Assembly: GCA_964016885.1 (NCBI GenBank) | Contig: OZ024743.1 | Coordinates: forward strand, 110,422,001 to 110,486,000 | Direction: 5' to 3' | Origin: Eledone cirrhosa | Taxonomy: Eukaryota | Length of the DNA: 64,000 bases | Part shown: piece after piece, positions 26,845 through 28,475 of the stretch | Layout of the letters: every line of letters starts with the position of its first letter | Numbering within the stretch: position 1 is the first letter of the stretch | Notes under the pieces: model-generated | What the model was told of the DNA's origin: nothing | Database searches by the model: none | What the model saw: the letters and a program-made list of their open reading frames with translations, nothing else | Translations under genes and position numbers: made by a program

Positions 26845-28475
26845 ACGGTGCTGATGACAGCTAATAACCTAGAAACTACTTCATCGTTCCTTTGTCAGTG
26901 TTGAACAAAATGTCAACGATGGTTGCCGAACACTGTACGGCTAATAATTCGGGCTGTTCGTTTACAATCATACCGAGCATTATAATAAATGGTCGGTAAG
27001 CCCATACGTACATATATATATGGGTGCATGTAGGTGTTTATATACATACTACTATACGTCTGTATACATATATGTATGTACGCATACATACTTACATTTA
27101 TATGTATAAATATATATATAATTCTATGTATATATATATATATATATATATATATATATATATATATATATATATATATATATATATATATATATATATA
27201 TATATATATATATATATATATATATATATATAAAGATAGATATATATAAATATATATAAATATATGTATATATATATAAACGGAAAAAAATGAAACGAAA
27301 TTTCATTTCCAACTCTTAGTACGGCTGTACTTAAATAAATATGAGTATGTATACGTACATACATATATGTATACAGACGTACAGTAGTAAGTATATATAT
27401 ATATATATATAGATACATGCACACATATATATATGTACGTATGGATTCACCGAACATTTATTATAATGCTCGGTGTGTTTGTAAACAAACATCCCGTATA
27501 AAGCCGTAGTGACTAGCAACCATCGTTGCTCGTTTGTTCAACACTGACAAAGGAACGCTGTACTAGTTTCAAGCTTATTAGCTATCGTCAACAACGTATA
27601 CCTTCCTGCCAGATGATTGAACGTCTGAAAGTATATAGTTTCATAATGCATATTAACGGCCGTACTAAGAGTGGGAAATGAAATTTCGTTTCTTTTTTTT
27701 CCGTTTATCGTTTTCGGTGCACCCGGCCGATTAACCCACTCGATATGCAAATTCGGCTGCTCAGCCGTTAATATGCATGTATGGGCTTAACGAACATTTA
27801 TTATAACGTTCGGTTTGTTTGTAAACAAATATCCCGAATTATTAGCGTTTGTAAACAGATATGCCGAATTATTAACGTTTGAAAATATATATTTTCCTTA
27901 TGCATATTGACAGCTGAGAAGCCTAATTTGCACATCGAGCGAGTTAGTCGGCCGGGCGACCGAATATGATAAATGGAAATAAAAAATGAAATTTCATTTC
28001 TCCCTCTTAGTACGGCTGATACTTAAATATAAGTACGTATACGTACATACATACACATATGCAAATTAGGGTAATCAGCCGTTAATATGCATAAGGAAAT
28101 GATATACTTTCAAACGTTCAATCAACTGACAGGAAGGTAAAGGTGCTGATGACAGCTAATAAGATAGGAACTAGTCCATCGTTCCTTTGTCAGTGTTGAA
28201 CAAAATGGCAACGATGGTTGCCGAACACTGTACGGCTAATAATTCGGACTGTTTGTTAACAAACAAACCGAGCATTATAATAAATGTTCGGTAAACTCAT
28301 AAGTACATATATATATATATATATATATATATATATGTGTGTGCATGTATGTGTGTATATACATACTACTGTACGTCTGTATACATATATATATATATAT
28401 ATGTACGTATACATACTTATATTTAAGTATTAGCCGTACTAAGAATGAGAAATGAAATTTCATTTTTTCCATTTA
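26845..28475. mobile_element. Family R2 hammerhead element in a scrambled +/-/+ array
   Basis: Three hammerheads at 26845-26887 (+), 27555-27597 (-) and 28142-28180 (+); consensus ACGGUG-CUGAUGA-NAGC-UAAUAA-GCUN-GAAA-CUAG-UH|CAUCGU; no ORF. Confidence 0.8.

Follow-up and report, generated by a model that had tools for sequence, protein, structure and literature searches.

A scrambled hammerhead array in Eledone cirrhosa probably made of decayed retrozyme copies inserted in a Penelope-type layout

How does a stretch of DNA come to hold several copies of one short non-coding unit, each with a hammerhead motif, in changing orientation and with further small pieces wedged between them? The question is raised by positions 26845-28475 of a window of 64,000 nt, the whole stretch of DNA analysed here, from Eledone cirrhosa (GCA_964016885.1, contig OZ024743.1, 110,422,001-110,486,000, forward strand). 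We conclude that this array is probably a set of decayed non-LTR retrozyme copies of metazoan type, which are non-autonomous elements of the Penelope-like kind, and that they lie in a Penelope-type insertion layout. The window is AT-rich (GC 26-55% per 2 kb) and contains many (TA)n tracts, fragments of Helitrons and of reverse transcriptases (RT), and several Penelope-like elements. Among its other contents are N-terminal fragments of a Helitron-like helicase (Pfam PF14214; 43937-45042, +), a broken non-LTR retrotransposon RT (~11000-14800, -; PF00078 at 13610-14053) with an internal duplication of ~800 nt, and a dispersed repeat family of up to ~190 nt found as direct and inverted pairs (4664-4761, 8924-9220, 42830-42900, 57065-57264 and 60136-60516).

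Mapping the region onto one unit resolved the (TA)n-flanked array into seven pieces, for which we coined the labels A-G (and, for their 3' ends, 'short end' and 'long end'). From left to right the order is (TA)n, A+, (TA)n, B-, C+, F-, G-, D-, E+ and a TA-rich repeat (Table 1), and BLAST between the pieces gave E-values of 1e-19 to 1e-130. A sequence-only reading of the same DNA had described three hammerhead copies in +, -, + order, which are pieces A, B and E, separated by small inverted pieces; F, G and D do lie on the minus strand, whereas C lies on the plus strand. The pieces diverge from one another by 3-15%: B differs from C at 2 of 65 shared bases, A from E at 22 of 254, D from E at 14 of 142 and B from E at 52 of 374. 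Since B and C share variants absent from D and E, two sequence variants are present, and because D is no closer to E than A is, a single template for D and E is not established. BLAST, nhmmer and covariance-model searches for further copies in the window returned only the array pieces and a related family at 63361; with the covariance model, the next match scored 17 bits, against 64-94 bits for the top four, which were the training sequences. At 26845-28475 there are no two consecutive same-strand units with hammerheads. The accessible text of a 2026 preprint (bioRxiv 10.64898/2026.07.22.740005) calls a retrozyme locus 'active' when two consecutive units carry complete hammerheads, and for lack of such a pair we file this locus as decayed copies.

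Table 1. Coordinates of the array, its parts and related elements in the window
Feature	Position	Strand	Remarks
(TA)n microsatellite	26575-26844		left flank
Piece A	26843-27100	+	5'-truncated, begins just before hammerhead, ends at upstream 'short' 3' end
Hammerhead A	26845-26887	+	core 26851-26857; predicted cut 26881/26882
(TA)n tract	27101-27275		between 3' ends of A and B
Piece B	27276-27660	-	nearly whole unit, second sequence variant, ends at downstream 'long' 3' end
Hammerhead B	27555-27597	-	core 27591-27585; predicted cut 27561/27560
Piece C	27659-27778	+	inverted partner of B, with tail, linker and start of the unit; carries first end-to-start junction
ATGCAAAT motif	27745-27752	+	also 28059-28066; homologous place in 63361 unit (63719)
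Piece F	27771-27846	-	internal hairpin segment; 8-nt overlap with C
Piece G	27847-27876	-	30-nt stutter of F's end, 90% identical
Piece D	27874-28061	-	inverted partner of E; second end-to-start junction; 5-nt overlap with E
Piece E	28057-28476	+	unit start to long 3' end, then TA-rich repeat
Hammerhead E	28140-28182	+	core 28146-28152; predicted cut 28176/28177
'Tail' between two 3'-end sites	28426-28475	+	50 nt in E, 55 nt in B; A/U-rich hairpin
Related young family	63361-64000	-	468-nt head-to-tail tandem; runs off window end
Hydra-type Penelope-like insertion	36197-40944	+	inverted piece, partial tandem, own hammerhead
Second complex insertion of same Hydra-type element	15351-21203	-	
Second Penelope-like family	24515-26540	-	5'-truncated; RT C-terminal part, GIY-YIG-type endonuclease; adjoins left (TA)n

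The unit closes on itself in two independent pieces of the array and again in the 63361 tandem, since C and D each read from the unit end via a linker of 33-34 nt into the unit start. The junction in C had been recognised before, at 27660-27778, and taken to be the only one, the second in D having been missed; the accompanying estimate of 480-500 nt for the unit gives way to measured lengths of 440 nt (B+C) and 453 nt (E+D), which differ mostly within the internal TA tract. Because B and C together span ~490 nt of a 440-nt unit, their template was either circular or more than one unit in length. The description of the unit as cyclic is borne out in that it closes on itself, and a read-through junction of this kind would fit a linear multimer equally well as a circular RNA. 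The unit has a GC content of 31-35%, and the array contains no ORF of at least 120 aa. Circular folds, in which the array monomers are composites of two pieces, gave z scores of -6.4, -10.5 and -11.9 (0 of 30 shuffles in each case), and with the TA block removed E keeps a z of -4.5 and B of -4.0; the predicted fold is branched, with an internal TA tract.

The region had also been headed 'R2'. R2 retrotransposons occupy a 28S rDNA site and possess an HDV-like ribozyme and an RT-REL ORF. If that element was meant, the name has to be dropped: the whole window gave 0 Rfam matches at the gathering score, to rRNA or to anything else, the array has no ORF, and its motif is a hammerhead, the link between R2 and the HDV ribozyme being described in the accessible text of PMC4209133.

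The hammerheads of A, B and E are of type I and share one plan: after a 6-bp helix I come the core, then a helix II region of 14 nt and GAAA, then CUAG closed by a 1-bp helix III, and finally UH. Every copy is damaged and, as noticed earlier, each in its own way: A has a G>C change in helix II, has lost the loop III palindrome and is missing the 5' arm of the long helix I; B carries C3U; and E combines A13G with mismatches in both helix II and helix I. Taken by majority, the core is intact. The earlier description of an intact consensus does not extend to the base of helix II (10.1-11.1), which is unpaired in 3 of 3 copies (C.A, U.U and C.A), probably as a family trait and not through decay. 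A U.U at this place is tolerated according to the available part of PMC3088659, and in the hammerhead table of the PMC8557442 supplement it appears in 14 of 26 Hydra-clade rows, and 10 of the 26 are laid out in helix II just like copy B (U, 4 bp, 4-nt loop, 4 bp, U). Helix I has stayed paired despite sequence change, as the first reading held (ACGGUG/CAUCGU in A, ACGUUG/CAGCGU in B), by way of one G.U to U.G swap in one copy. In B and E it continues through a bulge into a long stem, which in B reaches over ~27534-27622. AGGTA was considered as a splice donor and rejected, as AGG is paired in this helix I extension in 3 of the 3 rows that have AGGTA.

Taken singly, these three motifs are weak. 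A search of the array against Rfam at E<=10 gave 89 matches with no hammerhead family among them (the best were miRNA models on TA-rich hairpins, rejected as far below cut-off), and descriptor scans recovered B alone of A, B and E, with one of five shuffled windows scoring about like B. The case rests on the 63361 homologue. Over the four sequences (A, B, E and 63361), 89.5% of cells are paired, a level that 0 of 500 shuffles reach. Double changes occur at 6 of 15 hammerhead pairs in these four sequences and at 15 of 72 alifold pairs in a longer alignment; covariation, which had been proposed as a check, is thus present but slight among the array's own copies, which provide two double changes (in helix I from G.U to U.G, in the hairpin that follows from G-C to A-U), and since it involves four related rows and an analyst-chosen structure and comes mostly from the 63361 row, no statistical proof is possible from these sequences. 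In cofolding, B+B and 63361+63361 are predicted to form a double hammerhead through the palindrome and A+E are not, and in the circular model the hammerhead fold of E is improbable (helix II p<=0.01). Copies A and E are probably inactive. The 1-bp helix III with its palindromic ACUAGU would suit the hammerhead to action as a dimer.

The family at 63361 is the young relative on which much of this depends. Its tandem copies are identical at 172 of 172 bases in the visible overlap, and its hammerhead (63633-63589) is canonical and intact. That hammerhead aligns over the whole of the Rfam model Hammerhead_HH9 (RF02275; E 6e-8, 37.7 bits, below the gathering score of 52), with which it has in common the type I core and the bulged, extended helix I; A, B and E go undetected by this model. 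A shared CUAG loop and layout had already been pointed out for the two families, and their kinship turns out to be wider. Aligned to the 63361 family, the array unit matches at 113 of 175 aligned bases from the hammerhead to the TA block (0 of 300 shuffles), and across the junction the identity is 71% over 89 nt (0 of 200 shuffles); hairpins of the two units lie at the same places. As judged by these alignments, the array unit is homologous along its length to the 63361 unit.

The 3' ends of the pieces follow a pattern of their own. All four available ends (A, B, E and 63361) stop at TTTA beside (TA)n, at two homologous sites, a two-site pattern that is drawn from just these four ends and, for the array, from one decayed locus. 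B and E stop at the identical base, at which C and D continue, while A ends 50-55 nt short of it, at a base homologous to the one where 63361 ends, which makes the 63361 end a short one as well. TTTA occurs twice in E (both being end sites), three times in A, five times in B and six times in the 63361 unit, and the ends share 2-3 nt with the (TA)n target. Piece ends as marks of ribozyme cutting were rejected: 0 of 7 pieces begin or end at a predicted cut, which in A and E lies 219-299 nt upstream of the 3' ends. At the inversion junctions the pieces overlap by 2 nt (B/C), 8 nt (C/F) and 5 nt (D/E). The overall arrangement is that of Penelope-type insertions, with an inverted truncated copy at the 5' side and 3' ends pointing outward (B|C and F-G-D|E). 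Any target-site duplication at the array would be hidden by the (TA)n flanks.

The same layout is seen twice more in the window, in two insertions of one autonomous element (Table 1) that are ~96% identical. Both show outward-facing 3' ends at (TA)n, inversions within the insertion, partial tandems and two end sites separated by 87 nt; each has one long and one short end, whereas B-E carries two long ends. Their ORFs are slightly damaged, one stopping early and the other having an early frameshift. The protein motifs (RWR, DKT, CxCx5C, CxxC, CxH) match those of the Hydra clade as given in section 11 of PMC8557442, an assignment of Penelope-like ORFs that is made from motifs and homologues and without a tree, Pfam having no family for them; among named homologues of the long ORF, a bivalve protein that carries GIY-YIG and PF26215 domains is the best (37% identity). 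The terminal hammerhead of this Hydra-type element (~40870-40925, +) combines a U4A core change with a U.U as in B and a stable helix III, and U4A is present in all six full terminal copies (~40870-40925, 15510, 18760, 21134, 36353 and 37604). Very short 3'-end fragments of the element lie in (TA)n at 24433-24495, 58643-58735, 63150-63194 and 22429-22497, some of them beginning inside the hammerhead.

The second Penelope-like family, next to the left (TA)n of the array, is 32-35% identical in protein to the Hydra-type element; its apparent 3' end likewise stops at TTTA before (TA)n, and scans of it gave no clear hammerhead. When the unit was compared with the terminal regions of both Penelope-like families of the window and with the repeat at 53570-54660, only TA-driven scores resulted, and the best non-TA score out of many comparisons was matched by 2 of 200 shuffles; with the Hydra-type elements in particular there was no sequence match. 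The repeat just mentioned belongs to another TA-flanked family (1-800, 21196-22452, 33305-34037, 53570-54660 and 63253-63330), which has inverted pieces as well as a GC-rich hairpin; one of its pieces adjoins the 3' end of the 63361 tandem. No hammerhead was found in this family (1-800 to 63253-63330), which may be a further non-autonomous element of Penelope type.

How, then, does the array compare with systems already described? Metazoan non-LTR retrozymes, in the accessible text of PMC7229834 and bioRxiv 10.64898/2026.07.22.740005, are alike in being non-coding, with GC below 50% and a head-to-tail unit that bears one type I hammerhead, and their predicted RNA is likewise highly paired. The array's 1-bp helix III with a palindromic tetraloop recurs in axolotl HHR_Amex1, and the mismatch at its helix II base in HHR_Amex2. 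At 440-468 nt the units are at or above the range of 150-450 stated in PMC7229834 and inside the 51-972 of the preprint. Metazoan retrozymes form direct arrays, whereas the present locus is an inverted patchwork with three damaged hammerheads. A literature search that left aside most subscription papers and Repbase found no retrozyme with inverted, tailed insertions, and similar families may be listed in the supplements to PMC7229834 and to that preprint.

The shape of the insertion matches that of Penelope-like elements. PMC8557442, in its accessible part, describes inverted 5'-truncated copies and tails for Penelope-like elements and (TA)n targeting for Hydra and Naiad, and it is the Hydra clade that the array resembles in its (TA)n targeting, inverted 5'-truncated partner, two 3' ends and the U.U-based helix II layout of copy B. 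Unlike Hydra-clade elements, the array lacks the ORF for an RT with a GIY-YIG endonuclease in C-terminal position, which is present in its neighbours only, and on this ground an autonomous element of that clade was rejected. It further differs in the distance from hammerhead to 3' end (220-300 nt, against a position near the end in the Hydra clade), in a helix III that is shorter and a perfect palindrome (the 6-nt ACUAGU is in 0 of the 26 tabulated Hydra rows), and in a tail of 50-55 nt as opposed to 30-40. Non-autonomous Chlamys elements such as MRC1, as covered in the same source, are also non-coding Penelope derivatives with head-to-tail insertions, but they belong to green algae, generally share 3' sequence with an autonomous family and mostly lack canonical hammerheads. 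For Poseidon of Anolis carolinensis, the available text of PMC11167929 reports in vitro work in which the purified enzyme cuts and extends both target strands and starts at two internal sites bounding the tail, without need for ribozyme cleavage; the array is alike in having two such sites and insertion ends unrelated to the ribozyme cut, and would share the extension of both target strands. Poseidon differs in being autonomous and of another clade, and its starts lie in an AC-rich stem-loop without target homology, whereas the array ends share bases with (TA)n. What the earlier reading had left out is a probable cause of the scrambling, namely the known tandem and inverted insertion pattern of Penelope-like elements, with which the ends at (TA)n, the two fixed sites, the microhomology and the identical layout of both Hydra-type insertions would agree.

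We can sketch how such an array might arise. The source would be a protein-free RNA of ~445-nt units joined head to tail, each with one type I hammerhead, made from a source array either as a more-than-unit RNA or as a circle formed by self-cleavage and re-ligation. An autonomous Penelope-like element, most likely of the Hydra clade, would supply in trans the RT-endonuclease that nicks both strands of a (TA)n tract. One strand would then prime at a fixed internal site, 249 or 299 nt past the ribozyme cut in E, giving B or E, and the other would prime elsewhere on the RNA, giving C or F-G-D, as the positions of the ends suggest. Such priming from two strands resembles L1 twin priming, and the 3' side of F falls within the TA tract of the unit itself, which would pair naturally with a (TA)n target for priming. 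The two cDNAs would be joined via short microhomology and so leave a direct piece beside an inverted, junction-spanning one, which is the layout seen in the pairings of B with C and of E with F-G-D. The simplest history, though we put it somewhat below even odds, is that one microsatellite was hit three times, by A, then F-G-D-E, then a younger B-C. Because the outer end of C overlaps F by 8 nt, B-C tentatively appears to have landed later beside F-G-D-E, and this fits the lower divergence of B and C. After insertion the copies would have decayed.

It is unlikely that the pieces, while stemming from a retrozyme unit, owe their order to later DNA rearrangement, in which template switching or repair at cruciform-prone (TA)n scrambled a plain head-to-tail array. 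Unit and flanks are indeed rich in TA repeats and hairpins, and the junctions show microhomology, which arises in DNA repair too; yet at each of its two outer ends B-E terminates at an identical base and faces outward into (TA)n, the inversion breakpoints are not reciprocal, the two sequence variants are interleaved, and both autonomous insertions have the same layout. That the pieces could be pseudo-LTR (pLTR) remnants of an autonomous Penelope-like element with its ORF elsewhere is suggested by the Hydra-like hammerhead, by the truncated Penelope-like ORF beside the left (TA)n and by the statement, in the accessible text of PMC4209133, that most pLTR hammerheads are truncated single copies. 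We consider this very unlikely, as C, D and the 63361 tandem join unit end directly to unit start and thereby leave no room for an ORF, as the neighbour's 3' region does not match the unit beyond TA, and as the unit folds far better than its shuffles, whereas the autonomous pLTR in the window does not (z +0.4).

A self-replicating viroid-like RNA that had been captured by the RT of a retrotransposon and so endogenised would also be small, highly paired and self-closing, and the opposite strand of the unit does fold well (z -9.9 and -6.1). Against this origin, which we hold to be highly improbable, stand the branched fold with its internal TA tract and the Penelope-like ends and targets, together with a hammerhead on one strand of the unit only, for which reason a two-polarity viroid-like replicon was rejected. 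An assembly or read fold-back artefact, finally, seems scarcely credible even though inverted pieces by long (TA)n are hard to assemble (PMC8557442, accessible part), because artefactual duplicates would be nearly identical and 3-15% separates the pieces, which share indels and carry changes that preserve pairing. We retain decayed retrozyme copies in a Penelope-type layout as the probable identity of the array, which agrees with a non-LTR retrozyme in every sequence feature that was tested.

One may speculate, at odds that we put well below even, that a tandem hammerhead retrozyme here carries a full Penelope signature (two fixed internal start sites with a tail, priming on both strands of the target, and (TA)n targeting) without sequence common to any autonomous element. 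Its RNA would then be recognised in trans by structure, the stretch from the tail hairpin to ATGCAAAT that both families have conserved (71% over 89 nt) would be the enzyme-binding site, and the ribozyme would serve to make the circle and not the insertion. The position of this stretch, at the start sites and immediately downstream of them, is the one where the Anolis enzyme needs its RNA. In both retrozyme families the ATGCAAAT motif, which we take to be the octamer motif, lies upstream of the hammerhead; reversed, it is also found in the autonomous terminal repeat (16358, 20313, 36727 and 40003). Its count over the whole window is not enriched, with 8 sites against 5.96 expected and 29 of 100 shuffles reaching 8, so that as a promoter signal it stays a lead.

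Elements of this kind have been described from animals before. On the grounds of co-occurrence and pLTR kinship, Penelope-like enzymes have been proposed to move animal retrozymes (PMC7229834; bioRxiv 10.64898/2026.07.22.740005), and the preprint, in its accessible text, calls the mechanism unresolved and limits its own look at pLTR kinship to vertebrates. The insertion signature found in Eledone cirrhosa supports the proposed link, as a lead and not as proof, because it comes from a single decayed locus and four ends; for experiments, the intact 63361 family is the better choice. The array adds the shape of an insertion as a different kind of evidence for the connection between retrozymes and Penelope-like elements, and it names start sites that are testable with a purified enzyme.
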